Part shown: positions 10,413 through 53,986 of the stretch, piece after piece | Position numbering within the stretch: position 1 is the stretch's first letter | Layout: each line of letters opens with the position of its first letter | Assembly (NCBI GenBank): GCA_044356725.1 | Contig: JBIKVS010000003.1 | Coordinates: 4,735 to 68,734, forward strand | Origin: Minisyncoccia bacterium | GTDB taxonomy: Bacteria; Patescibacteriota; Minisyncoccia; SW-4-49-11 | Direction: 5' to 3' | DNA: 64,000 nt | The notes under the pieces: generated by a model | What the model was told of the DNA's origin: nothing | Seen by the model: only the letters and a program-made list of their open reading frames with translations | The model's database searches: none | Translations under genes and position numbers: made by a program

Positions 10413-10504
10413 AGCTATTGTTAATTATTACTAAGTATATAAATTAAGTATATTATATATTAATTATACTACATTTTATAATATAAATCAAGTGTATGTG
10501 TAGG

Positions 10505-10870
10505 GTAAGAAAATTGTGGATTGGGAGTTGTAAATTATAAATTGTGAATGGTGAGTTATTAATTGGGAGTTGGGCATCTGTCTCCCTTCGGAGGGAGTAC
10601 CCGTAGGGGGAGGGTGGATAATGCTTAAAATACTAAAATAAACTATTGTTTGTATTAATATTAAAATCTATCCACCACCGGCACTTCGTGCCACCTCCTC
10701 CAAAGGGGGACAAAATAGGTACAGGCGACTGGAAGGTCGCCCCTACGAATACAAAACACAATGGAGGGATAAACGTTTACCTCCCGTAGGGATGTCTCCG
10801 CTACCAATATAATGTCGGTGGGGGCGCCAACTCTACGAAATTCATAATTTATCATTCATAATTAAAATTA
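10505..10870. repeat. GC-rich hairpin-dense modular element (family copy 1) with degenerate direct repeats at its 5' end
   Basis: The rpsB-ftsW spacer is unusually long (about 450 bp). It holds direct repeats aattgtgNatNggNgagtt x3 (10512-10580), module A gtctcccttcggagggagtacccgtagggggagggtggata (10580-10620), a long-range complement tatccaccacc (10669-10679), hairpins ggcac-ttc-gtgcc and ggcgac-tggaa-ggtcgcc, and module C ggggcgccaactctacgaaatt + ttcataatttatcattcataatt (10820-10865). Confidence 0.6.
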
Positions 10871-16050: not shown

Positions 16051-18522
16051 TTATCGCAACTGTTCTAATTTCAGACGGGCAGGCTCAGCCTTAGGGTCAA
16101 GCTCTAATACCTTTTGATAATTTTGTTTTGCCAAATCAAACTTTTTCTCAATCTCATAAATCTCACCCAGTTTGAAGTATACATTGGTGTAATTTGGGAA
16201 AGTTTCTAATAGTTTATTATATACAGCTATAGCCTCTATATATTGATTATTATTCTGATAAGCTAAGCCCAATAAATACACTAATTCCTGATTAGCTGGT
16301 ATAGATTTTTCATTCACTATCTGCACATATTCTTCTAGAATATCAATCTGCTCTTCATAAGCTTCACTTAAAGATAATAAATCATAATAATTTTTGTAAG
16401 CTTCAGCTGAAAATTTATTTTTATCTATAGTAGTATTGAGAATAGATTTAGCTTTTTCTAATTGTTCTGAATTAATCTTTTCCCCTTTTTGAGCTTGTCT
16501 AGCATAATATTGAGCCTCATAAATATCCCAATCTTGAGATTGAGGCTTCAGGTCTCTACCTTTAGATATAAAGGCTAGGTATTCATTTTCATCTACTTCA
16601 CCATATTGATGTATTAGTGAAGATAGCTCTAATTGCCAATATATGACTCTGCTATCTAGTGTGAATTTAGTTTTATATTCATCAATTAATTCTTGAGTTT
16701 TTTGGATATTATCTTGAACAGTCTTTTGTTTTTCTGGATCTATATTAGATCTCACATTATTCTCATTATTGCTATTGAATAACTCGAATGATTGTGCATT
16801 AATTTTCTTAATCAAAGCTTGAATATACAAATTAGTATATTCAACCATATAAGGAGATTTCATTTGAGCTTGAGATAATAGTTTCACTTGCTCTTCCAAA
16901 TTATCCTGTACTTGACTAGCCCGCACAATATATGCTTGAGATTGTATAATATTATATATTTTACTAGAACCAAGAATAACCAAGGATATTGAAAAAAGAG
17001 TAATAAAAGTAAATAAAGAAGATATAGAAGCTGGAATTGTATTAATATCCAAATTTAATTTGAATATAGGTTTAAAATATTTAGTAAATATATTACTCCA
17101 TAAAACTAAAATAATAATAAATATAACTTTATTAATAATTGAAAATGGTATCAAAAACAATCCCCCTAAACTTAAGATTAAAGGCAATATTTCAACAGGC
17201 ACAGTTTTTTGGATTAGCACAACTCTCAAAATGGATAATAAAACCCATAAAGCTAATAAAATTAATAGCCCAGATACTATAACTCCATTCTTGACTATTA
17301 TATTAATAATTTCATTAAATAAAGTCTCAAAACTAAAGCCTGAGAGTTGTGGAGATATATTATCAGGAGCAAATCTATCCCAAGCATAAATAATATTACC
17401 GCTACCAAACCAAGTATCTGACTGAATACTTTGTCTCATAATATCTAAGCTAATATCTAGACCAGGTTTAGCTATTATGGGATATTCTTGTATTTGAATA
17501 TTATCCTGAAAAGGTCTTATTATCATAGCTGAGATTATCGCTATAATTATTATTCCTGATATAGCCGAAGCCCTAATAGTGATTAGTCTGGACTTAGATT
17601 GCAAAGTATGTCTTGAAGATATTTTTTTAAGATAAAATATAGTATGAACTACTAAATTAAGGATGCTCAATATATACATACTATTACCAGATAGTCGAAT
17701 TAAAACTAAAATATGAATGATAATAGCTAAATAATAAAATACATTAAACACCTTATAAATGAAAGTCTTAGAATTAATCTTGGCTAAAATAGTAAATATG
17801 AAGTTAATAGAAAGCAGGGTCAATAATCCTAATTCCTGAGGAGATTCTGTTAGCCAAGTATTGGTAGGTTGTAATCTAGTTAAGATTGAGAATCTAACTA
17901 ATACATCAGACCAATATCCAGCAATTCCTGATATCCCGGCTCCTACTAAGATTAAAATTGATACAAAAAATGACAATATACTAAGAGCTTTTTGACTTAG
18001 AAATAATTTCAAACCTATATAAAAAACAACCAAAAATCCAATCACTATCCCAGCATCAAAAATTCTAGCCGTACTCCCCCAAAAAGCTAAACGATTTGGA
18101 TTAATAAAAGTAATACCAAATACCGCAAGTCCAGATATTATAAATAAAATATCCCCTAAAGTAATAGCCACTGAATGCTTAATAAGGCCAAATATCCAGA
18201 ATATACTAGCTAAAAGCAAGAATCCAGTTACTCCAAATACAAAAACTATAGCCTTTGGTAATTGCCAAACACTAGACCAGTCTAAAACTATAACAGCTGA
18301 TATAACAGCAAAAGATATAATATTATATAGAACTAATATCCACTGAGAATTGGATAAAGTTCTTGATTTAGGATTTACTTTTGCAATTTGTGATTCACTT
18401 TTAGAACTAGATTTTTTAGAAATATTGGATTTAGTAGTAGATTGTAATTCTACCGATGCTTTTTCCCGCAGATTAATTACAGCCTTTGGCTTAGAGTTTG
18501 ATTTTATTGAATTTAAATTCAT
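16051..18522 (-). CDS. Large polytopic membrane protein with C-terminal TPR repeats (O-antigen-ligase-like/unknown)
   Basis: 823 aa with many predicted TM helices, then clear TPR repeats (LGLAYQNNNQYIEAIAVYNKLLETFPNYTNVYFKLGEIYEIEKKFDLAKQNYQKVLELDP). Confidence 0.5.
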   Translation of the reverse strand: MNLNSIKSNSKPKAVINLREKASVELQSTTKSNISKKSSSKSESQIAKVNPKSRTLSNSQWILVLYNIISFAVISAVIVLDWSSVWQLPKAIVFVFGVTGFLLLASIFWIFGLIKHSVAITLGDILFIISGLAVFGITFINPNRLAFWGSTARIFDAGIVIGFLVVFYIGLKLFLSQKALSILSFFVSILILVGAGISGIAGYWSDVLVRFSILTRLQPTNTWLTESPQELGLLTLLSINFIFTILAKINSKTFIYKVFNVFYYLAIIIHILVLIRLSGNSMYILSILNLVVHTIFYLKKISSRHTLQSKSRLITIRASAISGIIIIAIISAMIIRPFQDNIQIQEYPIIAKPGLDISLDIMRQSIQSDTWFGSGNIIYAWDRFAPDNISPQLSGFSFETLFNEIINIIVKNGVIVSGLLILLALWVLLSILRVVLIQKTVPVEILPLILSLGGLFLIPFSIINKVIFIIILVLWSNIFTKYFKPIFKLNLDINTIPASISSLFTFITLFSISLVILGSSKIYNIIQSQAYIVRASQVQDNLEEQVKLLSQAQMKSPYMVEYTNLYIQALIKKINAQSFELFNSNNENNVRSNIDPEKQKTVQDNIQKTQELIDEYKTKFTLDSRVIYWQLELSSLIHQYGEVDENEYLAFISKGRDLKPQSQDWDIYEAQYYARQAQKGEKINSEQLEKAKSILNTTIDKNKFSAEAYKNYYDLLSLSEAYEEQIDILEEYVQIVNEKSIPANQELVYLLGLAYQNNNQYIEAIAVYNKLLETFPNYTNVYFKLGEIYEIEKKFDLAKQNYQKVLELDPKAEPARLKLEQLR

Positions 18523-18620
18523 TTTATTAATATAATATATTGTATTATATTATATTCTAACATATATTCAGAATTTATCTAAGTGTTTGTATCGGATAAT
18601 TATAAATTATATAATTATCT

Positions 18621-18850
18621 GTCCTCCCTTGGGGGAGGTGTCACCGCAGGTGACGGAGGAGGACTGAGCTAAATTCCCCTCTTGAGGGGTGTCAGGCAAA
18701 AGCCTGACGGGGTGGAAAAATAAATTATGAATGATTAATTATAAATTATGAACCGTAGGGGCGCTGACTCTACGAAATTAATGATTCCTAAGCCTGGTAA
18801 AGCATCCTAAATTTCGCGCGGGTGAGTCCAGGAATTTAATCCCCTCAGCG
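18621..18850. repeat. GC-rich hairpin-dense modular element (family copy 2)
   Basis: Module B gtcctcccttgggggaggtgtcaccgcaggtgacggaggaggac (18621-18663) with outer stem gtcctcc/ggaggac and inner hairpin gtcacc-gca-ggtgac. Further hairpins cccctc-ttga-gagggg and gtcaggc-aaaa-gcctgac. Module C aattatgaatgat.../ggggcgctgactctacgaaatt (18725-18778). Confidence 0.6.
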
Positions 18851-20848
18851 AAGAACGCAACGAAAAGTAAGATCACCAGCTGTGAAACTTGGGGTGTTTA
18901 AGGTTGCAAGAGCAAATATTCCTGAATTAGAAGCTGCATTTGCATTACCACCACGTAAAAAGCCAAAGGCAGTGGTACCTGTGACTGTACCTGCCTGGTA
19001 TTGCCCCATATTCTGACTACTATTCCAACTAGTATTACTTGGTCTAGTTAAATCATAGCTTAAAGTGCCGAAATTAGTTATTGCTGTCCATTGCTGCCAA
19101 AAGGTACCAGAACTGTTATTGGGTTTATCTTGTCCTAATATAGTATCACTTGTCCATTCCCAGGAATTTCCACTTAAGTCCCATATTACTTCTCCATTAC
19201 TAAGGGTATGAGTTCTTCTCTGTCCACTTGGACTAGTATTACCTGTTCCAGAGTATCCATCATTATCATCTGTACTTGCTGACAATAAAAGAGCAGGAGA
19301 GTTATCGGTATGTCCGGACCACAAGCCTCCACTGCCTACTGTTCCTCCTGTCCAGTTTACTCCTTGCGCTTCTATGTTACGAGCTATGGTCATCCATTCT
19401 CTATTATTAATTAAACTTCCTCCTGCTAAGTTACACGCTGTTATAGCATTAGTCTGATTTAGGGAGCCTAGTGGTGGCCCTGCTGCTTGTGTGGTTGCTG
19501 CTACTGTTGATGATCCGGTCTTTGCTTCATATTTCATTACACAAAAGTCTCTAGTACCATATAAACTACTTCCAGGTACTCGGATATAGCCTGTTGGACA
19601 TTGTAGATACGACCAACCTGAAGCAGTACAAACTTGCAATCCCCCATTATTATATCTTAAAGTTCCTACATTAGAGCTAGTACAATTAGTAGTATCATTT
19701 CCAACTCTAATCCCACCATTTACATCTAATCTAGCTTGTGGGGTTGTGGTCCCGATACCTATATTCCCATTACCTAATATTCTCATCCTCTCATTAGCTC
19801 CATTTGCTCCAGTGAAGAATCTTATATCTTGAGCGGTAGCATTGGTAGTAGCTAAGACTAATGGCTGCGCACTTGTTGTACCTAACCTACTACCACTTGT
19901 CCCGTTCCAAGCATCTATAGTTGCATTCCCTGTTAAACTCCAGCCTGAACCTACGCTACTAAGACTTACCTGACTAAACTGTCCACTACTATTAGCTAAT
20001 AAAACTCTATCGAAACCACTTGGAGTTGTAGTATTAGCCACTCCTCCTAAGAGTGATGAGGTGACGGCTGTATTAGAAATTGTAAATCTATTAACACCAG
20101 ATGTACTAAATGTATATTGCTGTCCAACACTCCATAAAGTATTAAAACTTAATCCAAAATAAGTTTGAATAAATGAATTAGCAGAATTATCAGTAAATAA
20201 AGATAGTATATTAGTATTATCTGTATTTCTAATATTAAATGCACCTGCATTATTAGATGTATTTCTGATTGAAAGAACGGGATTATTACCCAAAAAGACT
20301 CCTTCTCCTCCTGAGTTTAGAGAGAAAGAATTGGTACTAGTACCACCATTTGCTACTAATCTCATAGAATTTATAGCTGACATTGCTGAGCCTATTCTCT
20401 TACGAGGGCTGAATATCTCTTCATAAGATCCATTCCCATCCGCATCTAATTGTAATTCTACCCATAAAGAATCATCATTGATAGAGCTAAGAGTTGTATT
20501 TTGACTTCCTAATAAAATTTCAAACCTACCATCAACAATAGATAATAGTGGCGATACTATTCCTGAGTAAGTTGTACTTCCATCTCTTATCTCTTCATAT
20601 ATAGATGTACCCCCAGAGACTACATTGTACAAACTAAACTTAACTCTATATCCTCCATCTGCTAACACTGTCCCATCATTTTTCACAATGGTCCCCGAAT
20701 ACGGTATCTGAGCATTAATACCAGTCCCTGCTAAGACTTTATTATAATTAGATATGATTAAAAATATTATGAATAAGAAAGCAATAACCCATCTTAGATA
20801 TGACTTATATTGTATATTAGCAAGTTTGTAAGATTTAAACACATTCAT
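18845..20848 (-). CDS. Secreted/signal-anchored protein with C-terminal FGE-sulfatase-like (C-type-lectin-fold) domain
   Basis: N-terminal signal anchor; C-terminal roughly 250 aa carry CPTGYIRVPGSSLY..DFCVMKYEAK, GNSWEWTSD, FLRGG and a terminal FRCVLR, resembling the FGE-sulfatase/SUMF1 fold. Paralogous to the C-terminus of the 36614-37978 ORF. Confidence 0.55.
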   Translation of the reverse strand: MNVFKSYKLANIQYKSYLRWVIAFLFIIFLIISNYNKVLAGTGINAQIPYSGTIVKNDGTVLADGGYRVKFSLYNVVSGGTSIYEEIRDGSTTYSGIVSPLLSIVDGRFEILLGSQNTTLSSINDDSLWVELQLDADGNGSYEEIFSPRKRIGSAMSAINSMRLVANGGTSTNSFSLNSGGEGVFLGNNPVLSIRNTSNNAGAFNIRNTDNTNILSLFTDNSANSFIQTYFGLSFNTLWSVGQQYTFSTSGVNRFTISNTAVTSSLLGGVANTTTPSGFDRVLLANSSGQFSQVSLSSVGSGWSLTGNATIDAWNGTSGSRLGTTSAQPLVLATTNATAQDIRFFTGANGANERMRILGNGNIGIGTTTPQARLDVNGGIRVGNDTTNCTSSNVGTLRYNNGGLQVCTASGWSYLQCPTGYIRVPGSSLYGTRDFCVMKYEAKTGSSTVAATTQAAGPPLGSLNQTNAITACNLAGGSLINNREWMTIARNIEAQGVNWTGGTVGSGGLWSGHTDNSPALLLSASTDDNDGYSGTGNTSPSGQRRTHTLSNGEVIWDLSGNSWEWTSDTILGQDKPNNSSGTFWQQWTAITNFGTLSYDLTRPSNTSWNSSQNMGQYQAGTVTGTTAFGFLRGGNANAASNSGIFALATLNTPSFTAGDLTFRCVLR

Positions 20849-20936
20849 TATTTATCAATGTTTATTTTATAAAATACTTTATATATGTTAATAAAACTAT
20901 TATACCATTTATCTGAAATAATTTCAATAATAAAAT

Positions 20937-20945: not shown

Positions 20946-21000
20946 CTTTATATATGTCTATTTCCAGCTTAACGGCTTAACTTAATATTAGATCTTAAAT

Positions 21001-21022
21001 TGTGGATAACTTTATATTGACA
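21001..21022 (+). promoter_or_regulatory. Conserved motif aattgtggataactttatattgaca: DnaA box immediately upstream of a -35 TTGACA, pilin gene 1 promoter
   Basis: tgtggataa at 21001-21009; TTGACA at 21017-21022; a -10-like taatct follows after a 17-nt spacer; about 60 bp upstream of the 21083 start. Confidence 0.5.
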
Positions 21023-21082
21023 AAATAATGTATTTGATTTAATCTATATTTAGAGTTATCATTAACATTACTCAAAACTCAT

Positions 21083-21613
21083 ATGAAAATTTACTCTACT
21101 TCTTCAAGCAAAGGTTTCACCTTACTTGAAATCCTATTGGTGATCGCTGCTATCGGTATCTTAGCTGCTATCGTCTTAGTTGCTATCAATCCTAACAGAC
21201 AACTTGCTCAAGCCCGCAATGCTCAGAGAAGGTCTGATGTTACTACTATTTCTAATGCTGTTTATCAAAGAATTATTGATGATGCTGCAAACAATTTAAC
21301 AACTATGAATACAGCTTTAGTTGATAATTTTGTTTATGCTATAGGTACATCAGGTACAGCAACCACAGTAGAAGCAACTTGTGCCACCCTAACTAATGTT
21401 AATGGAACAACTGCTACTAGGACAATTGATTTAGCTACTACATTAGCACCAAATTTTCTTGCATCAATTCCATTTGATCCCCGTGGTGGAAGTACAGCAT
21501 GTACTGGATATGTAATTACTCAATCCGGAACACCAGAAAATGGTAGAATAACAGTTACAGCTCCAATAGCAGGTAGTGATTTAGCAGGTAGCTCAATATC
21601 TGTAACAAGATAA
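21083..21613 (+). CDS. Type IV pilin (prepilin-type N-terminal cleavage/methylation domain)
   Basis: Leader MKIYSTSSSKG|FTLLEILLVIAAIGILAAIVLVAINPNRQ, a class III signal followed by the hydrophobic alpha1 helix; variable Cys-containing C-terminus. Confidence 0.8.
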   Translation: MKIYSTSSSKGFTLLEILLVIAAIGILAAIVLVAINPNRQLAQARNAQRRSDVTTISNAVYQRIIDDAANNLTTMNTALVDNFVYAIGTSGTATTVEATCATLTNVNGTTATRTIDLATTLAPNFLASIPFDPRGGSTACTGYVITQSGTPENGRITVTAPIAGSDLAGSSISVTR

Positions 21614-21631
21614 TTATTTATCTATAAAATT

Positions 21632-21663
21632 AAAAAGAGATGCTATGTACATCTCTTTTTAAT
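21632..21663 (+). terminator. Rho-independent terminator after pilin gene 1
   Basis: aaaaagagatg-ctatgta-catctcttttt: a 6-7 bp stem followed by a T-run. Confidence 0.5.
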
Positions 21664-21670
21664 TTTCAAT

Positions 21671-21692
21671 TGTGGATAACTTTATATTGACA
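21671..21692 (+). promoter_or_regulatory. Second copy of aattgtggataactttatattgaca (DnaA box + -35), pilin gene 2 promoter
   Basis: tgtggataa at 21671-21679; TTGACA at 21687-21692; 17-nt spacer then TAATAT as the -10. Confidence 0.5.
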
Positions 21693-21752
21693 ATTTAAGA
21701 TATATAATTTAATATATATATAGAGTTATAATTAACATTAATCAAAAATAAT

Positions 21753-22253
21753 ATGAAAACTTACTCTACTTCATCAAGCAAAGGTTTCACCTTACTTGAA
21801 ATATTATTAGTTATCGCTGCTATCGGTATCTTAGCTGCTATCGTATTAGTTGCTATTAACCCTAATAGACAACTTGCACAAGCTCGTAATGCTCAGAGAA
21901 GATCTGATATTAATACTATACTGAATGCTGTTTATCAAAAAATTATTGATGAAGGTACCTCCGGAAGTACTGTCACATTAACTGCAATTTCTACTACAGC
22001 AGGAGAAGTTAATAGAAATAACACTACAGGCTCAACCGAATGTACAGGAACTGCTGTTAATATGTCATCTGTAGCATCAGATGCTGGAGCTGATGTTGTG
22101 CCTACTTATTTAGCAGCTATTCCTCAGGATCCATCTGAACCAGGAACTTCAAATTGTAGTGGATATCTAATTTCTAAAGACGGGAATAATAGAATAACTG
22201 TCACTGCTGACAATACCGAGTTAGTAACTCCAGACTTCTTTGTAACAAGATAA
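21753..22253 (+). CDS. Type IV pilin paralog (tandem duplicate)
   Basis: The first roughly 55 codons are almost identical at the nucleotide level to the 21083 gene (MKTYSTSSSKG|FTLLEILLVIAAIGILAAIV...); the C-terminal half has diverged. Confidence 0.8.
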   Translation: MKTYSTSSSKGFTLLEILLVIAAIGILAAIVLVAINPNRQLAQARNAQRRSDINTILNAVYQKIIDEGTSGSTVTLTAISTTAGEVNRNNTTGSTECTGTAVNMSSVASDAGADVVPTYLAAIPQDPSEPGTSNCSGYLISKDGNNRITVTADNTELVTPDFFVTR

Positions 22254-24590: not shown

Positions 24591-24846
24591 GTCCTCCCTT
24601 CTACCTACGGCAGACAGGTGGGAGAGGTGGCCCCGTAAATGGGTCGGGAAAACTGGAGTTTTCCTGTGGAGGAAGGCAACGAGGTCAAAGACCGAGTGTT
24701 GGAAACCGTGGCTTTCCAAGGAACAAATCCCATTTGCGAAGACGGAGGAGGACTTCAGGCGGACGTAAGCTCCCACCTATGGTCTATACTTCATAATTCA
24801 ATCTCTATCCACCCTCCCCCTTCCGGTACTCCCTCCTAAGGGAGAC
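24591..24846. repeat. GC-rich hairpin-dense modular element (family copy 3, expanded)
   Basis: Module B 5' half gtcctccctt (24591) and 3' half gacggaggaggact (24741-24757) are separated by a GC-rich insert of about 140 nt. Module A is in inverse orientation: atccaccctcccccttccggtactccctcctaagggagac (24808-24846). The AT motif ttcataattca lies adjacent. The ORFs predicted here on both strands are judged spurious. Confidence 0.6.
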
Positions 24847-24901
24847 AAAATACATCTCAATATTAAAGTATTGTCTACGATGTTTCTAATCTTTTTAAAT
24901 G

Positions 24902-34650: not shown

Positions 34651-36552
34651 TTAATCCAGAGTACCGTTGGAGTTATATTTAGCTATAAAGGAATCTGTTC
34701 CTCCTATACTAGTTAGCTCTTGAATAATGCCACCTTGTCCAAAATTAGATAAACCTTGGAAATAACCTACTACTAAAACATTACCATCTATATCCACATC
34801 AACGCCTCTACCAGAGTCTGCACCTGATCCACCAGCTCTCCTAGCCCAGGCTAATGTTCCATTGGCATTATATTTTGCTATAAAGGCATCTTGTGCTCCT
34901 GCACTAACTAATGATGTCTGATTAGATTCACCTTGACCAAAAGTTGCCGTACCCTCAAAGTATCCAGTTATTATGGAACTTCCATCTGTATTTATGGCAA
35001 TATCAATAGCTAAATCTCCTCCATTTCCTCCAGCTTTCTTAGCCCAAGCTAATGTTCCGTCTGAATTATATTTAGCTACATATATGTCTGCTTGTACTCC
35101 TGTACTGACTAATGTTGTTTCATTTGACTCACCCTGTCCAAAGACTGCTGTCCCCCAGAAAAATCCAGTTACTATACTACTCCCATCACTATGCATACCT
35201 ATATCTCTAGCCCAGTTTATATCTGCTCCTATTGACAAGACTTTTTTTGCCCATATAATACTTCCATCTGAATTGTATTTAGCTATATAGCTATTATAAG
35301 TTCCTGAGGCAGTTAAAATTGTCTGATTAGGGTCACCCTCACCGAAAATAACAGAATTAGTGCTAGCAAACTGTCCTGCAACAACAAATGTTCCATCTAT
35401 ATTATTACTAATTCCATATCCCCATTCCCAAGAATTACCACCTATTCTTTTAGACCAGGCTAATGTACCATTAGAATTATATTTAGCTATAAAGGTATCT
35501 GTAGCACCTCCACTAACAAGAGTAGTAGCATTGGCTTCTCCCTGTCCAAAGACTGCTGTCCCCTCAAAGTATCCAGTTACCAAAGCACTGCCATCAGAAT
35601 TAGCAGCTAATCCGAAGCCATATTCTCTTTCACCAGTACCACCTGCTCTCTTAGCCCAAACTAAATTACCATCCGTAGCATATTTTGCAACAAATATATC
35701 TCTACTTCCTGCACTGACTAGAGTTGTGGCATTAGGTTCTCCTTGTCCAAAGACTGCCGTACCTGTAAATGAACCTGTTACAATACTTGTCCCATCTGCA
35801 TATCCTATAATATAGTTACCCCCATAATCTTCACTAGTACCACCTGCTCTTTTGGCCCATGCCAAAGTTCCACTGGGATTATATTTAGCTATAAATATAT
35901 CTCTACTCCCTGCACTGACTAAAGTTGTAGCATTAGGTTCTCCTTGTCCAAGGATAGTAGTACCTTCAAATGAACCTGTAACTAAAACACTACCATCACT
36001 TAACTTAGAGACCCCTCCACTTTTATCCAAACCACCAGATCCCCCAGCTTGGACTAGAAAAGTTTGAGTTGGAGTTATAGTATTGATAACCAAATCTTGC
36101 TCTAATTCTGCTTTATTAGCTCTGAGACTAATCTGATTATTCGAGTCTTTAGCAATTTCATAACCTGTTTCTCCAACTATTGTATCGGTATCTTTGGGAA
36201 TTTCACTTAAGTATGTAGGGACCAACACTCTTAAATCTATCTTACCATCACAGTATCCTGTACTCGGTAGTGTATCTTCTATAGTAAGATTGCCTGTATC
36301 ACATATCTCTATATATGTATTAGTAGGTATGTTTAAATCTACAAATCCCCTATTAACTGCATTATATTGCTGTAATGCATTATAGATATCATTAATTGAG
36401 ACTTGTCTCTCAAGATTTCTAGATTGTGAGATTTGTCTACTAGGATTTATAGCTACTAGAACAATACTAGATAATATACCTATTACAACTATGGTCAAAA
36501 GTATCTCTAATAATGTAAATCCTTTATTACTTATCTTATTATATTTATTCAT
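34651..36552 (-). CDS. Prepilin-type N-terminal domain fused to SBBP-like beta-propeller repeats (large pilin-like adhesin candidate)
   Basis: Leader MNKYNKISNKG|FTLLEILLTIVVIGILSSIV; the C-terminus has about ten repeats of ...GTAVFGQGE.N.TTLVS.G..D.FIAKYN..G.L.WAK.AGG..., matching the SBBP beta-propeller repeat pattern. Confidence 0.65.
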   Translation of the reverse strand: MNKYNKISNKGFTLLEILLTIVVIGILSSIVLVAINPSRQISQSRNLERQVSINDIYNALQQYNAVNRGFVDLNIPTNTYIEICDTGNLTIEDTLPSTGYCDGKIDLRVLVPTYLSEIPKDTDTIVGETGYEIAKDSNNQISLRANKAELEQDLVINTITPTQTFLVQAGGSGGLDKSGGVSKLSDGSVLVTGSFEGTTILGQGEPNATTLVSAGSRDIFIAKYNPSGTLAWAKRAGGTSEDYGGNYIIGYADGTSIVTGSFTGTAVFGQGEPNATTLVSAGSRDIFVAKYATDGNLVWAKRAGGTGEREYGFGLAANSDGSALVTGYFEGTAVFGQGEANATTLVSGGATDTFIAKYNSNGTLAWSKRIGGNSWEWGYGISNNIDGTFVVAGQFASTNSVIFGEGDPNQTILTASGTYNSYIAKYNSDGSIIWAKKVLSIGADINWARDIGMHSDGSSIVTGFFWGTAVFGQGESNETTLVSTGVQADIYVAKYNSDGTLAWAKKAGGNGGDLAIDIAINTDGSSIITGYFEGTATFGQGESNQTSLVSAGAQDAFIAKYNANGTLAWARRAGGSGADSGRGVDVDIDGNVLVVGYFQGLSNFGQGGIIQELTSIGGTDSFIAKYNSNGTLD

Positions 36553-36613: not shown

Positions 36614-37894
36614 CTATCTAATTACACATCTAAAGCCATGTGTAGGTAAAGAGCATGTAGTATTACAAGGGCCAATTGAGAAAACTCCAGCTCCTTCTTG
36701 AGTCGAATCCCAACCTCCTGACCATGAACCACCTCTCATCCAATTAGAGATCTGAGTTGAGCTACTAGGAGAATGACTTATTAATTGTCCTATATTATTA
36801 GAGCTGTTCCAAGCTATATTGCTAGGTCGATAATAATCATAGTATAATATTCCATTACTGATAATATTATTAAATTCTACTCCAGCCCAACTAATTTGAT
36901 TGTTTGAATAAGGCATATCTTTTTGTTGAATAGTATCTGTAGTCCACTCCCATAGATTACCACTAATATCCCAAATAGTTTCCCCATTACTTAATATATG
37001 TGTTCTTTTTTGCTGCCATCCATTATTAATACTATTCCCTGTATCTTTATATCCCAAATTATCATCTGTGCTAGCTTCTAGAGCTGTATTCGGATTATTA
37101 TCACTATGTCCTCTCCAAATCCCTCCATTACCAATTTCGTTTACTGGAGTTGGGATTGGATTATACCAGTTATTAGATACCGATTCTATATTTCTAGATA
37201 TAGTCATACCTTCTACATTAGTCATTAAACTAGCTCCTGCATTAACACAATAACTTGCAGCCGTTGCTTGATCTATATTAGCTATTGGATACCCAGTAGC
37301 TACACTGGCTATAGTTCTACCATTAGCTGCTGTAGTGGGGGTGGTATTATTTGCTATAGTATTGAAACCAGTATTTGGAGTTGTTAAACCTACAGTTGGA
37401 CTATTGATAGCTACTGCTTTAGCTTCGTATTTCATCACACAAAAGTCTTTGGTTTGATATAGGCTGTTTCCGGGTACTTTTATATAACCTGTTGGACAGC
37501 TGAAGTTTCCTGCTGTATCTGTTGTATTGACATAGACTCTACCATCATTCCCTCTTGCTACCGTATATGTGGTACTACTTGGTATTGCGGATACATATTC
37601 TGGTATTAAACTACTTAGGTTTATACAGTCTGGTGTATTTACTGTATTACTACATACTTTCCTTTGTACTCCATCTAGTCCTGCTGGGTAATTACCTGTA
37701 TCTATCAATCTCTGTTGTAATGCTTTCTCTATTGTATTCTTATCGCTATTTATTGCTGCTTGTCTTGCTTGGTTTATTTGTCTATTTGGATTTATGGCTA
37801 CCAGTACTATTGCCGCTAATATTCCTATTGCTGCTATTACTAATAATATCTCTAGGAGGGTGAAGCCTTTGTTGGCTTTTATATTTCTATTCAT
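36614..37894 (-). CDS. Prepilin-type N-terminal domain fused to an FGE-sulfatase-like (C-type-lectin-fold) domain
   Basis: The ORF track extends to 37978 (TTG start). The likely true start is the ATG at 37892-37894, giving the leader MNRNIKANKG|FTLLEILLVIAAIGILAAIV. C-terminal CPTGYIKVPGNSLYQTKDFCVMKYEAK, GNLWEWTTD, MRGGSW and a terminal HGFRCVIR; paralogous to the C-terminus of 18845-20848. Confidence 0.6.
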   Translation of the reverse strand: MNRNIKANKGFTLLEILLVIAAIGILAAIVLVAINPNRQINQARQAAINSDKNTIEKALQQRLIDTGNYPAGLDGVQRKVCSNTVNTPDCINLSSLIPEYVSAIPSSTTYTVARGNDGRVYVNTTDTAGNFSCPTGYIKVPGNSLYQTKDFCVMKYEAKAVAINSPTVGLTTPNTGFNTIANNTTPTTAANGRTIASVATGYPIANIDQATAASYCVNAGASLMTNVEGMTISRNIESVSNNWYNPIPTPVNEIGNGGIWRGHSDNNPNTALEASTDDNLGYKDTGNSINNGWQQKRTHILSNGETIWDISGNLWEWTTDTIQQKDMPYSNNQISWAGVEFNNIISNGILYYDYYRPSNIAWNSSNNIGQLISHSPSSSTQISNWMRGGSWSGGWDSTQEGAGVFSIGPCNTTCSLPTHGFRCVIR

Positions 37895-38019
37895 ATGTAT
37901 GAGTTTATTATTTATAATTTTATTACAGTCTTTTCTATATCTATTTAACATTATACCTCCCCCCCAGATTTTTGTCAAATTTGGAGTGTGCTGATGTATG
38001 TATAGTTAATATAATAATT

Positions 38020-40874: not shown

Positions 40875-43800
40875 CTATTTTAATCTTAACAAATAAGTTC
40901 CACTCTGGTTATTATAAACCTGAAACCTCCCTCCAACTACTATCTTTCCATCTGATTGGATAGCGATAGTATTGACAGTCTCATTAAATCCTGTACCTAT
41001 CTCAAAACTATTATCTCTACTTCCATTACTATTGAGTCTTATTATTCTATTAGCTGATGCTCCTCCTTGATCTATAATTTCTGTATAATCATATTCTTCA
41101 TTATACTCTAACTCTCCCTGATATAACTCAAACCCTCCTCCTACTACTATCTTTCCATCTGATTGGATAGCGATAGTATTGACAGTCTCATTAAATCCTG
41201 TACCTATCTCAAAACTATCATCTCTACTTCCATCATTATTTAAACGAATTATTCCATTAGCTGAGGATCCTCCTTGATCTATAATTTCTGTATAATCATA
41301 TTCTTCATTATACTCTAACTCTCCCTGATATAGGTTAAAATATCCTCCAACTACTATCTTACCATCTGATTGGATAGCGATAGTATTGACAGTACCATCA
41401 AATCCTGTGCCTATCTCAAAACTATTATCTCTACTTCCATTACTATTGAGTCGGATTATGCTATTAGCTGATGCTCCTTTATAATTGCTAAAGTCTCCTC
41501 CTACTATTATCTTTCCATCACTTTGGATAGCGATAGTATTGACAGTCTCATTAAATCCTGTACCTATCTCAAAACTATCATCTCTACTTCCATCACTATT
41601 TAAACGAATTATTCCATTAGCTGAGGATCCTCCTTGATCTATCATTTCTGTATAATCATATTCTTCATTATACTCTAACTCTCCCTGATATAGGTTAAAA
41701 TATCCTCCAACTACTATCTTACCATCTGATTGGATAGCGATAGTATTGACAGTACCATCAAATCCTGTGCCTATCTCAAAACTATTATCTCTACTTCCAT
41801 TACTATTGAGTCGGATTATGCTATTAGCTGATGCTCCTTTATAATTGCTAAAGTCTCCTCCTACTACTATCTTTCCATCTGATTGGATAGCGATAGTATT
41901 GACAGTACCATCAAATCCTGTGCCTATCTCAAAACTATTATCTCTACTTCCATCACTATTTAAACGAATTATTCCATTAGCTGATTCTCCTTTATAATTG
42001 CTAAAACCTCCTCCTACTATTATCTTTCCATCACTTTGAGTTTTAACTATATCGACATCTGAGTCAAAAGAAATTTTATTGGTGTATTTAATTCTAAGTG
42101 ACAATCCACTATCAAAGTCAGTAGATCTACTACCGTCCAAATTAAATTTTAGAATACTTCCGATAGTAACGTCAATTGCTCCTCCATCAGTATTAAAGTT
42201 AGAAATCCATTCCTCATTTTCAAAATCTATCGTCTGCATATCAATTAATTCTCCATCTGCATTATATACATTATTAACTGTTGTAAACAAAGCTCCTCCT
42301 AGAAAAATAGTGTTATTAACTAATAACATTCTATCCGCGATATTAGGTGTTAATAAACTATTCATATCTAAACTAAAACTTGTATCTCTACTTCCATCAC
42401 TATTTAGTTTTAAAATATTTCCTCCAAAATCTTCAATTTCCCCAGAAAAATTTCTAAATAAGATAAATATAGTACCATCGCTTTGTTCATAAATATCTTG
42501 TATATAAAAGTATGTGTTTATACTTGGTAAAGATATATCTGAATTAAATGATAAATCTTTTTCACCATTGCTTGTTAACCTAATTAATCTATTTACTGAA
42601 TTGTTTTGATATGTTCTAAAATCTCCTCCTACCAATATCTTGCCATCAGTTTGTAACAATATACTGTTGACTACACCTCCACCAAACCAATCACCAAACC
42701 CTGACCCCATATCAAAGCTGCTATCTCTACTACCATCACTATTTAATCGAATTATTTTATTTGCTCCCAAGCCATTATAACTAGTAAAATTTCCTCCTAT
42801 CAATATCTTGCCATCTGACTGAACAACCAATTTATACACAGACCTATCTATACCTGAAAAACCCGTGCCTATATTAAAGCTTGTATCTCTACTTCCATCA
42901 CTATTTAATCGGATTATTCTATTTGCTCCTACACCATTATAACTAGTAAAATTTCCTCCTACTATTATCTTGCCATCTTCCTGTATGGCTAAAGTATTGA
43001 CAGAATCATCCCCGGCCGTTGTTCCATCCAGACTCCCCCTAAATCCTGTCCCTATATTAAAGCTTGTATCTCTACTTCCATCACTATTAAGTCTAACTAT
43101 TCCATTAGTTGATTCTCCTAGATACTCATTAAAATCTCCTCCTACCAATATCTTTCCATCTGACTGTTCCTTTATATCAAATACACAGCAACTTATGTCA
43201 CCTGAATTAAAACTTTCATCTATATCTCCATTTTGATTAATTCTAAATATATTATTGATATAATCACTATTAATTGTATTTACTAGTATATTACCATCAC
43301 TTTGTAATTCGAAAACAGTAGATTGTATGAGTTCAGATTCTAAAAAATTGTCAATATCAATAATGTACCTATTGGAATCAGAAATTAATTCAAACCCAAA
43401 ATTTCCTGTGTAAAAATCTTTATCTATTATTCCTGTGGCTGTGTTTAAAGGAGGATTTATACCATCATCTACATCATCTGTATCTGGAGGGATAACTGAT
43501 GGATTTGGAGTAGTTGGGATATTAGGTGTAATTGGATTTATAGGTAAATTAGGTACACTAGGAATACTTGGGACATTCGGTATACTTGGTTTATTAGTTA
43601 TACTTGGTAATTCTATTGGCTTATTATTTGTAATAGGTGGTTTATAAACTTCTATTGGAGAATATCTCAAAGGCTGACTTCTTATACCCCTATATTCTCC
43701 CCTTATATTATTAACTATTGTTGCTATACGTTGTTCTCGTTTTTCCTCATTCTCTCTTGTTACTACTGTGCTATTTCTATCATCTACATCTTGATCTCTG

Positions 43801-43958
43801 TTATTCTCTACTTTACTATTTTCTATCTTATTAACTGATTCTATATTTAATTCATCAATATCTGTATTTATATTATATATAATATATACTCCTAATACTA
43901 ATCCTATACTGATTCCTATTGTTAATAGGATATTTTTTAAATTTACTTTTCTCTGCAT
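40875..43958 (-). CDS. Giant surface protein with delta-60-type beta-propeller repeats and a Pro-rich stalk
   Basis: N-terminal TM; Pro-rich linker (PSIPNVPSIPSVPNLPINPITPNIPTTPNPSVIPP); then more than 10 repeats of IIRLNSDGSRD.SF.IGTGF.GTVNTIAIQSDGKI.VGG.F, matching the delta-60 repeat pattern. Confidence 0.6.
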   Translation of the reverse strand: MQRKVNLKNILLTIGISIGLVLGVYIIYNINTDIDELNIESVNKIENSKVENNRDQDVDDRNSTVVTRENEEKREQRIATIVNNIRGEYRGIRSQPLRYSPIEVYKPPITNNKPIELPSITNKPSIPNVPSIPSVPNLPINPITPNIPTTPNPSVIPPDTDDVDDGINPPLNTATGIIDKDFYTGNFGFELISDSNRYIIDIDNFLESELIQSTVFELQSDGNILVNTINSDYINNIFRINQNGDIDESFNSGDISCCVFDIKEQSDGKILVGGDFNEYLGESTNGIVRLNSDGSRDTSFNIGTGFRGSLDGTTAGDDSVNTLAIQEDGKIIVGGNFTSYNGVGANRIIRLNSDGSRDTSFNIGTGFSGIDRSVYKLVVQSDGKILIGGNFTSYNGLGANKIIRLNSDGSRDSSFDMGSGFGDWFGGGVVNSILLQTDGKILVGGDFRTYQNNSVNRLIRLTSNGEKDLSFNSDISLPSINTYFYIQDIYEQSDGTIFILFRNFSGEIEDFGGNILKLNSDGSRDTSFSLDMNSLLTPNIADRMLLVNNTIFLGGALFTTVNNVYNADGELIDMQTIDFENEEWISNFNTDGGAIDVTIGSILKFNLDGSRSTDFDSGLSLRIKYTNKISFDSDVDIVKTQSDGKIIVGGGFSNYKGESANGIIRLNSDGSRDNSFEIGTGFDGTVNTIAIQSDGKIVVGGDFSNYKGASANSIIRLNSNGSRDNSFEIGTGFDGTVNTIAIQSDGKIVVGGYFNLYQGELEYNEEYDYTEMIDQGGSSANGIIRLNSDGSRDDSFEIGTGFNETVNTIAIQSDGKIIVGGDFSNYKGASANSIIRLNSNGSRDNSFEIGTGFDGTVNTIAIQSDGKIVVGGYFNLYQGELEYNEEYDYTEIIDQGGSSANGIIRLNNDGSRDDSFEIGTGFNETVNTIAIQSDGKIVVGGGFELYQGELEYNEEYDYTEIIDQGGASANRIIRLNSNGSRDNSFEIGTGFNETVNTIAIQSDGKIVVGGRFQVYNNQSGTYLLRLK
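40930..42060. repeat. Near-identical intragenic tandem DNA repeats (360-bp super-unit made of 207-bp plus 153-bp sub-units)
   Basis: The 22-mer ggatagcgatagtattgacagt recurs at 40958, 41165, 41372, 41525, 41732 and 41885 (spacings 207/207/153/207/153). Long stretches are identical, e.g. about 41281-41510 against 41641-41870. Confidence 0.8.
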
Positions 43959-48970: not shown

Positions 48971-49233
48971 GTTTAGTTAATATTTTTTAAAGTAAGTTTA
49001 TGTTCTCTGAAATATAATACGGTAAATCTCAGTATTTTTTAAATCCAAAAGGACTGAGCTCTGCCTTCTAAAAATCACTACCTACTTTTTACCTCTTAAC
49101 CCATGTTTTCATAGATAAGCCTCGGCTTTTGTCATTGATGATCTGAGCTTATTTTCTACGGCCTTGAGATGTTTATTATATTTATTGTTTTCTCTCATCT
49201 ATTTTGGTGTTTAGATAAAGTTGGAAGATCTTA

Positions 49234-49331
49234 GTCCTCCTCCGTCACCTACGGTGACACCTCCCCCAAGGGAGGACAGTTCTTATCTTGTCTCCATTTG
49301 GAGGGAGTACCCGCAGGGGGAGGGAGGACAG
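49234..49331. repeat. GC-rich hairpin-dense modular element (family copy 4)
   Basis: Module B in reverse orientation, gtcctcctccgtcacctacggtgacacctcccccaagggaggacagtt (49234-49281), is the reverse complement of the 18621-18663 copy with one mismatch. Module A gtctccatttggagggagtacccgcagggggagggaggaca (49290-49330). It sits between convergent genes. Confidence 0.65.
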
Positions 49332-49334
49332 AGC

Positions 49335-50525
49335 CTACAGCCCAAATCTACCTTTGGTAGCATTGAAGTTTTGTTGAATTTCTTCTGGGGTAAGTGCTCT
49401 ACTATAAAATTTTGCAGAATATATTCTACCATTAAAAAATCCATAACTTGGGTAAGCGCCTATCAAATCTGTAGTGATTTTTACATTTGTTCTTGTACTA
49501 GCTAGACCATTTTTTATAAATGTTCCATTTATATAAAGAGAAGGAACTTTATTTGTATAATTTACTACTATATGAATTGGGGCATTTATAGTAACTGAGT
49601 GCGATAATAATGGAGGCATATAAGCAGCTGAATGCTCATAAACACTTATACCATTAGTTCCAACTGATATTCCAGAACCGGCATCAGGAGATGCAACAAA
49701 TTGAGGGCCAATTACATATTTTTGTCCTGATGTACCCCCAAAACCAGAATTAGTTTGTGATTCTATTTCGTGAGTTGTTTGTGGTAGGCACCAAATATCG
49801 TATGAAAAATTATTAAAAACATTAGAAGTACTTGAGGATACTCTATCATCGCCCCCATCAAAGACTAAAGCACCTCCATTAGCAGAGTTGTAGGTAGGAG
49901 TAGAAGGAGCTGGAGCAAGTGTCCCATTATTATTGTTCCCACTTAAATCAAACCAGGTATTTTGGGCTGTATTTAAACCTGGATAACTATTTATATTACC
50001 TGCATCTAGATGTAATACTAGTCCATTAGTGACTATAGATGGAGTGATTGTATTAGATTGTAGTTCAGTAGTAGCTTCTTTATTAATTACTCCTGACTTA
50101 TTAATTATAATAGACTTACTTACTCCCCCACCAGTTAAATCTATTTTAATAGAATCATTACTCAAGTCTAGTTCACCATTGATAAGCTTGAATGGTATGT
50201 CTAATGTCTGTTCTGAACTGACTGTGATGCCAGAATTGATTGTGATAATTTCAGGATATTGAGTAGATGTACAGGTTACTGCTGTTATAGTGTATGTTTT
50301 AGCAGTATTATCTATACATACTCTCCATTGAGAATCTTTATACTGATTTTTAGATAATTGTTGGGCTCTTAGCAATGCATTGTAGAGAGATTCATGGGCT
50401 GCACTTAAATCATTGCGGATTACTATACTAGATACTAAAGGTGTCGTAATAGCTATAAGAATAGCTATCAAAACTATTACTAAAGTAATTTCTATTAATG
50501 TAAAACCTTTATATTTACCCTTCAT
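49335..50525 (-). CDS. Pseudopilin/type IV pilin-like protein with C-terminal LamG-like domain
   Basis: Leader MKGKYKG|FTLIEITLVIVLIAILIAI; C-terminal GFFNGRIYSAKFYSRALTPEEIQQNF, a LamG-type end; last gene of the pilus block. Confidence 0.65.
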   Translation of the reverse strand: MKGKYKGFTLIEITLVIVLIAILIAITTPLVSSIVIRNDLSAAHESLYNALLRAQQLSKNQYKDSQWRVCIDNTAKTYTITAVTCTSTQYPEIITINSGITVSSEQTLDIPFKLINGELDLSNDSIKIDLTGGGVSKSIIINKSGVINKEATTELQSNTITPSIVTNGLVLHLDAGNINSYPGLNTAQNTWFDLSGNNNNGTLAPAPSTPTYNSANGGALVFDGGDDRVSSSTSNVFNNFSYDIWCLPQTTHEIESQTNSGFGGTSGQKYVIGPQFVASPDAGSGISVGTNGISVYEHSAAYMPPLLSHSVTINAPIHIVVNYTNKVPSLYINGTFIKNGLASTRTNVKITTDLIGAYPSYGFFNGRIYSAKFYSRALTPEEIQQNFNATKGRFGL

Positions 50526-50533
50526 ACTTTGAT

Positions 50534-51805
50534 TTAAGCTTGAAAATTACCAACTAAGCTATAAATTGGGAGTAAAATAGCAACTGCCAAAAATACAACA
50601 CCTACCCAAACTATTATCAATAAAGCCGGTTCTAATAGAACAGCAATGTTCTTAGCAATCTGCTCTGATTCCTGCTCATATCTCTCCCCCAATTGCTCCA
50701 ATACTTCTGGTAACTTTCCTGACTCTTCCCCAGCTGTTATAATTTCTTGAGCTGCGAATGGAAGTATTGAATTAGTTCTTTTCTTATTCACCTCAAATAT
50801 ATTATGAAAACTTTTACCACTTTGAATATAATTGGCTAAAAATTGGGTGTAGTTTTTGTACATATAATAATCGTGAATTTTAGATAAAGACAATAAAGCC
50901 TTCGTGATAGGAATACCTGAATTTAATAACATTGCAAGGTTATAAGCAAACCTAGAGACCTCAGTTTTAACGATTAAATCATTGAATACTGGTAAATGAA
51001 ATAATAGCCACTGACCAGACTTTCTTGTTGCTGGAAAGACGAAAAGCACTAAAATTGATAGAACCAATGTTCCTACAATTAAAGGTATAATAATATACCA
51101 ATACTTAGACATAAATTCTCCAATTTGGATTAAAATTCTAGTCATTACTGGTAATTTTACATTCATATTCGAGAATACCTGTCCAATTCTAGGCAAAATG
51201 AAAGTTGAAACTCCTATACCCAAAACTAAAACCAGTGTAAGAACAAATATAGGATAGAATAAGGCCGATCTTAATTGTGCTCTACGCCTTTGATCCTTGT
51301 CTAGTGATATAACTGTTCTTTTAATTTTATCTGCTAAATTTCCTGATTCTTCACCAATTTGAATTAAAGAAATTAAGAAATCTGGTAAGAAATTATGGTC
51401 TTGCATTGTTTGAGACAAACTACTACCACTTTCCACACTGCTTAACATTGAGTTGAGTGTTTTTTTCAAAGTTTTATCTTGAGTATTTTTATATAATATC
51501 CTTAAAGAAGTATTTACACCCATACCAGAACCTACTAATAATGCTAGGTTATCTAAAAAGGTTTTTTTTGCTTTAGTAACTTTACTGCTACCTCTTTTCA
51601 CTTTAGTACGAGTTGGAGTTTGATTCTGAAATGATTGCTTTGCATACAGTTGCTCAATTTCAGTAAAAACTGACTGATTAGCATTATCTATATTAACATC
51701 AGGATTTTGAGTTTCAATTGTATAATTAGGACTAACAACTTGATCTGTAGTTGTATTTAGATTATTAATCACGTCTTTTGATGTATCTTTTTTCTTAAAA
51801 AACAT
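50534..51805 (-). CDS. pilC: Type IV pilus/type II secretion inner-membrane platform protein (PilC/GspF family)
   Basis: Two T2SSF-like repeats with three TM segments; FLDNLALLVGSGMGVNTSL; adjacent to pilB. Confidence 0.8.
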   Translation of the reverse strand: MFFKKKDTSKDVINNLNTTTDQVVSPNYTIETQNPDVNIDNANQSVFTEIEQLYAKQSFQNQTPTRTKVKRGSSKVTKAKKTFLDNLALLVGSGMGVNTSLRILYKNTQDKTLKKTLNSMLSSVESGSSLSQTMQDHNFLPDFLISLIQIGEESGNLADKIKRTVISLDKDQRRRAQLRSALFYPIFVLTLVLVLGIGVSTFILPRIGQVFSNMNVKLPVMTRILIQIGEFMSKYWYIIIPLIVGTLVLSILVLFVFPATRKSGQWLLFHLPVFNDLIVKTEVSRFAYNLAMLLNSGIPITKALLSLSKIHDYYMYKNYTQFLANYIQSGKSFHNIFEVNKKRTNSILPFAAQEIITAGEESGKLPEVLEQLGERYEQESEQIAKNIAVLLEPALLIIVWVGVVFLAVAILLPIYSLVGNFQA

Positions 51806-51810
51806 ATATT

Positions 51811-53958: not shown

Positions 53959-53986
53959 AATCTTTGATATATTTAAATTTATTATA

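Follow-up and report, generated by a model that had tools for sequence, protein, structure and literature searches.

A likely surface fibre adhesin of a Minisyncoccia bacterium with a MAT-like stalk and a lectin tip from a retroelement-diversified family shared with type IV pilins

Introduction

The mosaic adhesive trimer (MAT) fibres of Bdellovibrio bacteriovorus (Bd1334, Bd2133, Bd2439 and Bd2740; Caulton et al. 2024, PMC10769870) are known as trimers from solved structures and consist of a signal sequence, a conserved beta-rich N-domain and a stalk with the repeat ERMRI…GNxGIGTxxP…LxVxG, a constant N-terminus being combined with diverse, exchangeable C-terminal tips. MAT proteins have been described as phage-tail-fibre-like, and the tip of Bd2740 has a C-type-lectin fold that was compared to phage Mtd (PMC10769870). 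Here we analyse a gene of similar plan in a 64-kb stretch of DNA (hereafter the window; GC content 31%) from a Minisyncoccia bacterium (contig JBIKVS010000003.1). This open reading frame (ORF), gene A, shares its C-terminal module with a second ORF of the window, gene B, which encodes a type IV pilin fusion. Named relatives are metagenome-assembled genomes (MAGs) of Minisyncoccia, Paceibacteria or Parcubacteria, that is, Patescibacteria or Candidate Phyla Radiation (CPR) bacteria. We consider it likely that gene A encodes a surface fibre adhesin, composed of a MAT-like stalk and a lectin tip of the kind used by diversity-generating retroelements (DGRs), and that the tip is a cassette which type IV pilins carry as well.

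Other known proteins bear on the tip itself. The solved DGR variable proteins (TaqVP, 5vf4; TvpA, 2y3c; Bordetella phage Mtd, 1yu0-4) carry a variable block at their extreme C-terminus, which ends in GFRC/V and shows an AAY-to-NNY codon signature, and they are served by a template repeat, a reverse transcriptase and Avd. TaqVP and TvpA are single-domain monomers; Mtd is placed at the end of a trimeric fibre. Formylglycine-generating enzymes (FGEs; FGE/SUMF1 family, PF03781) are soluble maturation enzymes, and the triad of human FGE, Ser333/Cys336/Cys341, has been placed in a C-terminal segment (TaqVP paper, PMC6328139). Saccharibacteria bind their hosts through minor pilins that end in large lectin-like domains, as shown for PilX2 (PMC11623550).

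Results

Genes A and B share a C-terminal module

A preliminary description of this DNA had recognised both ORFs, which are present at the coordinates of Table 1, and had proposed that one FGE-like module is deployed on a pilin and on a non-pilin protein. By BLASTP, residues 398-667 of A and 142-454 of B are 42% identical (57% positives, E = 2e-65), so the two C-termini are homologous, and the motifs quoted for them (CPTGYI[RK]VPG.SLY.T.DFCVMKYEAK, STDDN.GY..TGN, RTH.LSNGE.IWD.SGN.WEWT.DT and a terminal FRCV[IL]R) are all found in both. The shared module comprises 251 aa and begins exactly at Cys417 in A and Cys161 in B, similarity upstream of these residues being spurious. Compositional coincidence as the cause of the shared motifs is ruled out by this E-value and by 44 columns that are invariant across 83 members of the tip family. 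A tblastn search over the window found two copies of the module, those of A and B, and no third.

The assignment of B to the pilins holds, with the motif KG/FTLLE (the slash marks the cleavage site) and matches to Pfam N_methyl (24.3 bits, cut-off 21.2) and TIGR02532 (27.9, cut-off 16.3); its real start is probably the ATG at 37894 (MNRNIKANKG/FTLLE). In Pfam and NCBIfam searches the prepilin cleavage and N-methylation motif G/FTLxE was absent from A, which is therefore a non-pilin protein, as proposed. A single module is thus carried by two delivery scaffolds, one of them a type IV pilin, and this generalises to database relatives.

A MAT-like stalk follows a conserved, probably exported N-domain

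The preliminary description had read the N-terminal part of A as a signal anchor with a long Ser/Thr/Asn/Gly-rich region. We find instead that the N-terminal 416 aa form a beta-rich domain and a fibre stalk that matches the solved Bdellovibrio MAT fibres. Residues 292-392 of A matched 8oml (E 6e-10), 8on4 (7e-6) and 8ol4 (2.6e-5) in a phmmer search of the PDB, and a profile of 49 relatives matched 8ond (E 1e-11) and 8oml (2e-9). These structures are Bd1334 (8oml and 8on4), Bd2439 (8ol4) and Bd2133 (8ond; PMC10769870). Judged by sequence, the stalk of A, which has the MAT stalk repeat, is homologous to the solved MAT stalks, and it is probably trimeric.

Upstream of the stalk, the family alignment shows a variable hydrophobic N-terminus that ends in V-x-A, directly before an invariant (N/G)TGIN.QIPYSG, and AlphaFold2 (AF2) predicts a helix at residues 16-33 of A. 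Given its position just before the invariant segment, we read V-x-A as a signal-peptidase-I site, which makes a cleaved signal peptide likelier than the signal anchor first proposed. The adjoining N-domain (residues 41-185) is 55-85% identical in the ~35 relatives with unrelated tips found among the best 120 database matches, and AF2 predicts it to be beta-rich (predicted local distance difference test, pLDDT, 77-88 at residues 45-135).

Full-length homologs of A (P0001-P0009) are 56-97% identical to it. A dN/dS comparison of A and B had been suggested earlier; we set it aside as meaningless at such divergence, since at 42% amino-acid identity synonymous sites are saturated and only an 80-nt block of DNA is alignable, and compared A with its 97% ortholog instead (P0001, locus L204). 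Omega for this pair reaches 0.41 over the whole gene, with 0.27 for the tip core and 0 for the N-domain, which has no nonsynonymous change, and A is thus under purifying selection. The stalk differs by 9 nonsynonymous changes, 1 synonymous change and a 2-aa indel, clustered at residues 209-241. Among orthologs, which range from 595 to 667 aa, stalk length differs through indels.

Gene A and the MATs also differ. The organism that carries A is a monoderm-like CPR bacterium and not a Gram-negative predator, although in both cases the way of life needs recognition of the surfaces of other bacteria. A has 667 aa compared with ~1000 aa for MATs, and S74 chaperone-protease variants, a feature of MATs, were not seen among the relatives of A. 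Unlike the tips of MATs, that of A represents the FGE subtype, is a member of a DGR-target family and also occurs on type IV pilins. Finally, MAT trimers come from solved structures, while A is known from its sequence and from monomer prediction only.

The tip is predicted to adopt the fold of DGR variable proteins

The AF2 model of the tip (residues 414-667, built from an 83-sequence alignment) has a pLDDT of 89.7 and a predicted TM-score of 0.89. Its best Foldseek match in the PDB is the Thermus aquaticus DGR variable protein TaqVP (E 6e-8, TM 0.51-0.53, probability 1.0), followed by bacterial and human FGEs (E 4e-5, TM 0.37-0.42) and then by Mtd (3e-4), TvpA (1e-3), PvdO and EgtB; Mtd and TvpA also reach a probability of 1.0, and the probability for solved FGEs, EgtB and PvdO is 0.8-1.0. 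The module is FGE-like in its predicted fold, as had been proposed, with the solved DGR proteins as its closest structural matches at a sequence identity of only 13-18%. Among predicted viral structures, the best matches were tail-fibre and tail-collar proteins of phages and proteins of crAss-like phages.

With the FGE/SUMF1 family the tip has in common the overall fold, the motif …SGNxWEWTxD… and a terminal GFRC. C472 in the first helix and C664 in the C-terminal strand probably form a structural disulfide, which we take to be equivalent to one in human FGE. The earlier suggestion of a binding or enzymatic module can be narrowed, with binding as the likelier of the two. Residues 632-663 of A (RGGNANAASNSGIFALATLNTPSFTAGDLTF), the RGG-FRC segment that is equivalent to the FGE triad according to PMC6328139 and the motif alignment, contain no Cys. 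The PF03781 search that had been recommended gives a weak match in both A and B, under the gathering threshold in both, and the matches cover profile positions 85-194 (A) and 83-209 (B) of 255, leaving the catalytic-triad segment outside. Precomputed PF03781 matches are present in many relatives, and 7 members of the stalk family reach E 1e-10.

Two sequence searches of the PDB were discarded. A profile search with the tip matched only pilins, most of the alignment rows carrying a pilin N-terminus, and weak phmmer matches of A residues 453-530 to variable domains of antibody heavy chains (QAAGPPLGSLNQTNAITACNLAGGSL; E 0.006-1) were judged to be chance, the predicted tip fold not being an Ig fold. 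As PDB sequence searches with the tip returned only pilins or antibodies, the link of the tip to FGE and DGR proteins rests on the sub-threshold Pfam match and the fold search.

The tip family is a scaffold used by DGRs

Column entropy across the 83 tips is low except in one C-terminal block (A residues ~635-659) with the pattern RGG-x-W-xxxxx-AGVF-x-L-x-L-xx-TPS-xxxxxx-GFRCV. In pairs of tips with 80-90% core identity this hypervariable block is only 45% identical, and Lys is absent from its hypervariable positions. Scanning the GTDB species representatives yielded 455 tip relatives, in Parcubacteria, Saccharibacteria, Oligoflexia/Bacteriovoracaceae and DPANN archaea; there are often many copies per genome, and copies are frequently found at contig ends. 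Eighty of these 455 loci were fetched and searched for a template. At six (L033, L037, L056, L068, L074 and L083), the last ~130 nt of the gene are copied ~2 kb away with 83-93% identity, and the mismatches fall almost exclusively at adenines of the copy (9/9, 15/16, 15/16, 19/21, 19/21 and 12/14). The adjoining ORFs encode reverse transcriptases, matched by RVT_1 at E 1e-19 to 1e-23, and proteins of the bAvd type. Four of the verified targets are type IV pilin fusions; the others (L033 and L074) have Laminin_G_3 N-terminal regions.

The same signature is written in the codons, as measured in 11 hypervariable columns and 11 equally variable control columns. In 31 close Parcubacterial genes, NNY codons make up 89% of the hypervariable columns versus 46% of the controls (Fisher p 2e-33), and codons for K/E/Q/M/W 3.9% versus 20.5% (p 2e-11); in 5 verified targets, NNY reaches 91% versus 61%. 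In a Paceibacteria MAG with 7 copies, paralogs agree at 84% in the invariant codons of the block, versus 74% in the rest of the tip, a homogenised scaffold that is expected of a shared template acting in trans. On this sequence evidence the tip family is a scaffold used by DGRs, in which the last ~30 residues (RGG…FRC) form the variable and presumably ligand-binding surface. The preliminary description had made no connection with DGRs; the six verified relatives and the codon signature identify its module as a fold and family that DGRs diversify.

High copy number was also observed in single MAGs with 7-8 or more tip genes, many of them truncated at contig ends (L010, L017, L018, L025, L028, L029 and L031 in Paceibacteria; L008-L032 in Minisyncoccia). 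In the Paceibacteria MAG with 7 copies, almost all hypervariable codons take the form NNT, and the template is absent from the fetched flanks; together with the homogenised scaffold, the near-universal NNT implies one template repeat serving many remote targets.

The tip was also seen in predatory Bdellovibrio-like Oligoflexia/Bacteriovoracaceae (L040, L045, L050, L067, L068 and L078) and in DPANN archaea (L043 and L057), and at one Patescibacteria locus (L054) its partner is another kind of fibre, of the GNVGIGTASPTAYLHL type. Occurrence of the module seems to go with lifestyles that depend on attachment to other cells.

Tips have been exchanged between fibres and pilins

Among the best 120 database matches, whose architectures were examined, ~75 join a pilin to the tip, 9 join a fibre to the tip and ~35 join an A-type N-domain to unrelated C-termini. 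At least seven C-terminal classes other than the FGE-like one are mounted on the A-type stalk, one of them being Pfam Gly_rich_2, which makes at least eight classes among 49 relatives. The tip of A is 72-76% identical to pilin-borne tips of other genomes, compared with 42% to that of B. A neighbour-joining tree of the tip core (100 bootstraps, ten fibre-borne tips) recovered the fibre-borne tips as monophyletic in 0 of 100 bootstraps; they fell into a median of six groups, and several fibre-borne tips lie nearest to pilin-borne ones. Relatives share 80-91% identity with B in the pilin module and only 54-64% in the tip.

An instance of such exchange would be found on the contig of the 97% ortholog. 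Between FtsW and S2 this contig has an extra gene for a 415-aa pilin with a C-type-lectin tip (L204:19973-21450), which reproduces the pilin scaffold of B nearly verbatim (91% in the pilin module) with a different tip. The gene is absent from the window, where positions 10413-10867 hold in its place a ~455-bp spacer with a GC-rich repeat, between flanks that are 98-99% identical. The polyphyly of the fibre tips, the constant pilin modules with divergent tips and this extra gene together argue for a tip that is a cassette moving between scaffolds and loci. By these comparisons neither A nor B is the closest relative of the other, and there has been repeated movement of tips between fibres and pilins. 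The paralogy that had been proposed for A and B is accordingly retained as homology of their C-termini and not as a simple duplication within the genome, the tip of A being nearer to pilin tips of other genomes and fibre-borne tips being polyphyletic.

Comparison with the 97% ortholog also revealed 7 substitutions and an indel in one loop of the tip (residues 530-542, DDNDGYSGTGNTSPSG vs DDNP-YFGTNDISPSA). The loop of the ortholog is similar to the one in further paralogs (…DNDPYFGTG…), a sign that tip copies may have undergone gene conversion in patches.

The Saccharibacteria TM7x minor pilins PilX1 and PilX2 (PMC11623550) resemble B and its ~75 pilin-borne relatives in joining a pilin N-terminus to a large C-terminal binding domain. 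They differ in that A has no pilin module and in that the PilX domains are jelly-roll and beta-propeller folds, not C-type lectins; DGR diversification is not mentioned for the PilX pilins in PMC11623550.

Codon traces in the variable-region equivalent of gene A

In the single sequence of gene A, 9 of the 11 hypervariable codons are NNY, 4 of them Asn AAY, and none encodes K/E/Q/M/W. All 3 Arg codons of the block are adenine-free, versus 3 of 25 elsewhere (p 0.006). The codons of gene B are not distinctive (NNY 6/11), and its Arg is encoded by AGA. We conclude that A probably descends from DGR-written genes and is probably not diversified now.

Genomic surroundings

Gene A lies among genes for PGM, an MraY-like protein, an amidohydrolase, MurD, FtsW, S2 and EF-Ts, with no phage genes, and relatives at 67% and 97% identity preserve the gene order around it (syntenic orthologs L002 and L204). 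Such housekeeping flanks in conserved order argue that A is not a prophage gene. The features of A and B are collected in Table 1, together with a candidate promoter; promoter-like sites in the region are not more numerous than expected from shuffled sequence.

Table 1. Features of genes A and B and of their immediate flanks (window coordinates)
Feature	Coordinates	Strand	Remarks
Gene A, likely MAT-like fibre with FGE-subtype C-type-lectin tip	18845..20848	-	667 aa, ATG start
Signal sequence of A, residues 1-40: n-region, h-region WVIAFLFIIFLIIS, then VLA/GTG	20729..20848	-	
Beta-rich N-domain of A, residues 41-185, presumed cell-surface attachment module	20294..20728	-	conservation and AF2
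Fibre stalk of A, residues 186-416, length variable among relatives	19601..20293	-	
MAT-type fibre repeat of A, residues 292-392 (…DIRFFTGANGANERMRILGNGNIGIGTTTPQARLDVNGG…)	19673..19975	-	phmmer vs PDB
Tip of A, residues 417-667, predicted FGE-subtype C-type-lectin fold, shared with pilin B	18848..19600	-	AF2, Foldseek
DGR variable-region equivalent of A, residues 632-664 (RGG…FRC), presumed ligand-binding surface	18857..18955	-	
Gene B, type IV pilin and tip fusion	36614..37978	-	454 aa counted from first TTG
Pilin module of B	37499..37894	-	
Tip of B	36617..37498	-	
Candidate promoter of A, TTGAAA-17-TATAAT, TG-extended	20899..20927	-	~50 nt upstream of the A ATG; consensus 11/12
Array of four short GC-rich hairpins	18619..18708	.	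~140-230 nt downstream of the A stop; not part of the gene

Two features pointed out earlier are present, the GC-rich element at 18.6 kb and DnaA-box matches between A and the neighbouring pilin genes. Copies of the dispersed hairpin family occur at 18619-18668, 49230-49279 (96% complementary), 10579-10632, 24794-24852 and 49284-49337; in this genome of 31% GC, each of them is intergenic, on the downstream side of a minus-strand gene. The array has an RNA fold z-score of -2.7, and no T-tail terminator was found at the hairpins. Rfam over the whole window returned one tRNA only, and the element thus matches no known RNA family; the hairpins could be REP-like (repetitive extragenic palindrome) elements or unusual terminators. 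The perfect DnaA-box matches (TGTGGATAA) at 20937, 21001 and 21671, the only perfect ones among the matches listed (12 of 26), lie in the promoter regions of two small tandem pilin genes, which share a 291-nt repeat (20992-21282 and 21662-21952, 88% identical).

Pilus genes of the window encode proteins of the PilB and PilC types as well as three pilins, B included, whose C-terminal domains are lectin-like, in line with the host-binding minor pilins of Saccharibacteria (PMC11623550). The intervals 34651-36552, 49335-50525 and 50534-53544 hold the two further ones, with a beta-propeller (SBBP/DUF5122 repeats) or Laminin_G_3; PilC-like and PilB-like genes lie close by, as does a two-component system (53593-55585). 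Laminin_G_3 is also the N-terminal partner of the tip in the verified DGR targets L033 and L074. A 1027-aa ORF (40875-43958) with ~11 tandem diverged repeats of ~153-207 nt (families D1-D6) is probably another surface repeat protein. Immediately downstream of A, and adjacent to it also in the 67% and 97% relatives, an 823-aa polytopic membrane protein (16051-18522) has C-terminal tetratricopeptide repeats; Pfam gave no match on its membrane part. As the whole region is collinear, this adjacency does not establish a functional link of the 823-aa protein to fibre A.

Discussion

In the mechanism that we favour, A would have the build of a phage tail fibre or a Bdellovibrio MAT fibre: the signal sequence, probably cleaved, would export A, the N-domain would hold it on the cell surface and the stalk, variable in length and probably trimeric, would project the tip outward. 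The tip would serve in binding, most plausibly to a molecule on the surface of the host cell of this episymbiont. It is an exchangeable cassette, mounted repeatedly on fibres and on type IV pilins such as B, probably minor pilins located at the pilus tip; the variable-region equivalent of A would still bear traces of retroelement writing and appears to be fixed at present. A tip so placed would recall Mtd at the end of its trimeric fibre and would differ in this from the monomeric TaqVP and TvpA.

Several observations weigh against this reading. The AF2 model of the stalk monomer is poor (pLDDT 62.8), and Foldseek of that model versus the PDB returned nothing at E < 0.1. NCBIfam Bdello_MAT_N (NF053851) scores 16.4 bits on A against a cut-off of 60, and its weak matches in 27 of 49 family members (best E 2.7e-5) are all far under the cut-off, so the N-domain may be MAT-like in its working and is at most a remote relative of those of MATs. 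The PF03781 scores (A 17.4 bits, E 0.0036; B 21.7) stay below the cut-off of 23.3. As to retroelement writing, the adenine ratio of block to core in A is 0.62 versus 0.43-0.47 in verified targets and close relatives, a partial depletion that is confounded by amino-acid composition, and the scaffold deviates from the family, with RGGNA for RGGxW and LTFRCV for xGFRCV. In the window, repeat search and blastn-short found no template-like repeat of the 3' end of A or B, and tblastn with six verified reverse transcriptases and two Avds found neither protein. Between A and its 97% ortholog, the 108-nt block shows 0 differences and the tip core 25. A metagenome scan for a template of A was uninformative, all 120 returned stretches being poly-A, which the search pattern itself admits.

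Of the alternatives, the one that fares best holds that a DGR is diversifying A even now, with a template and reverse transcriptase outside the window acting on it in trans. We regard it as unlikely. It draws on the verified targets in the family of A, on close Parcubacterial relatives that carry the full codon signature without a template within 10 kb, suggesting that remote targets are common, on the homogenised block in the 7-copy genome, as one template for many targets predicts, and on the NNY, AAY and adenine-free Arg codons of A. However, ~4 differences from the 97% ortholog would be expected in the block at the rate of the tip core, the differences from P0002 include Glu, which NNY cannot encode, and A has lost conserved scaffold residues. 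With the window lacking a template and a reverse transcriptase, in contrast to established DGR targets, and the block identical in the ortholog, current diversification of A is unproven and rather unlikely.

It is less probable still, indeed quite improbable, that A is a structural fibre of the envelope or associated with an S-layer, without specific ligand recognition and with the module as a stable capping domain. A variable-region equivalent that does not vary would suit such a fibre, but hypervariability in the family is focused on one surface block with the DGR signature, the same module is found on pilins and on DGR targets, and exchange of tips on a constant stalk is a hallmark of receptor-binding proteins. 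We give very little credence to A being a prophage or phage-derived tail-fibre gene instead of a cellular adhesin: stalk repeat and tip fold do resemble phage tail fibres, as MATs do, but the flanks are housekeeping genes, their order persists in relatives, and fibres of virions do not carry an N-terminal secretion signal. Least credible, to the point of being negligible, is a surface-tethered enzyme (FGE or another oxidase of the FGE/EgtB/PvdO superfamily), which the weak Pfam match and the Foldseek probabilities would favour, since the segment equivalent to the triad lacks Cys and, being hypervariable in the family, could not hold a conserved active site, the Pfam match is partial and below threshold, the closest structural match, TaqVP, is a non-enzymatic DGR variable protein, and display on fibres or pilins, where FGE itself is soluble, is the architecture of an adhesin.

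In the searchable literature, Paul et al. 2017 (DGRs in CPR and DPANN) excepted, we found no description of a MAT-type fibre combined with a DGR-type tip, or of a tip that alternates between fibres and pilins. Gene A combines known kinds of parts, a MAT-like fibre and a DGR-type lectin tip; DGRs in CPR bacteria and MATs in predators were already described. Public databases label such proteins 'formylglycine-generating enzyme', and the finding therefore corrects a common mis-annotation.

A bolder reading, about which we are doubtful, is that Patescibacteria own a cell-encoded, phage-like toolkit for host recognition, with a retroelement-programmable lectin tip interchangeable between MAT-like fibres and pilus tips and with A as a remote target, in trans, of a DGR elsewhere in the genome. 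If this were true, one template repeat might suffice to redirect the adhesins on fibres as well as those on pili towards new hosts.

To our knowledge, type IV pili are the only well-supported host-attachment device of ultra-small CPR bacteria. As a likely adhesin, gene A would add a second device, of the fibre type and related to the prey-recognition fibres of Bdellovibrio, whose binding head is the same cassette that is found on pilins and that, in relatives, is rewritten by DGRs. It also points to candidate determinants of host range: residues 632-664 as binding surface, the tip as swappable unit and the N-domain as anchoring unit. Altogether, gene A is a strong candidate for how CPR episymbionts recognise their host cells.

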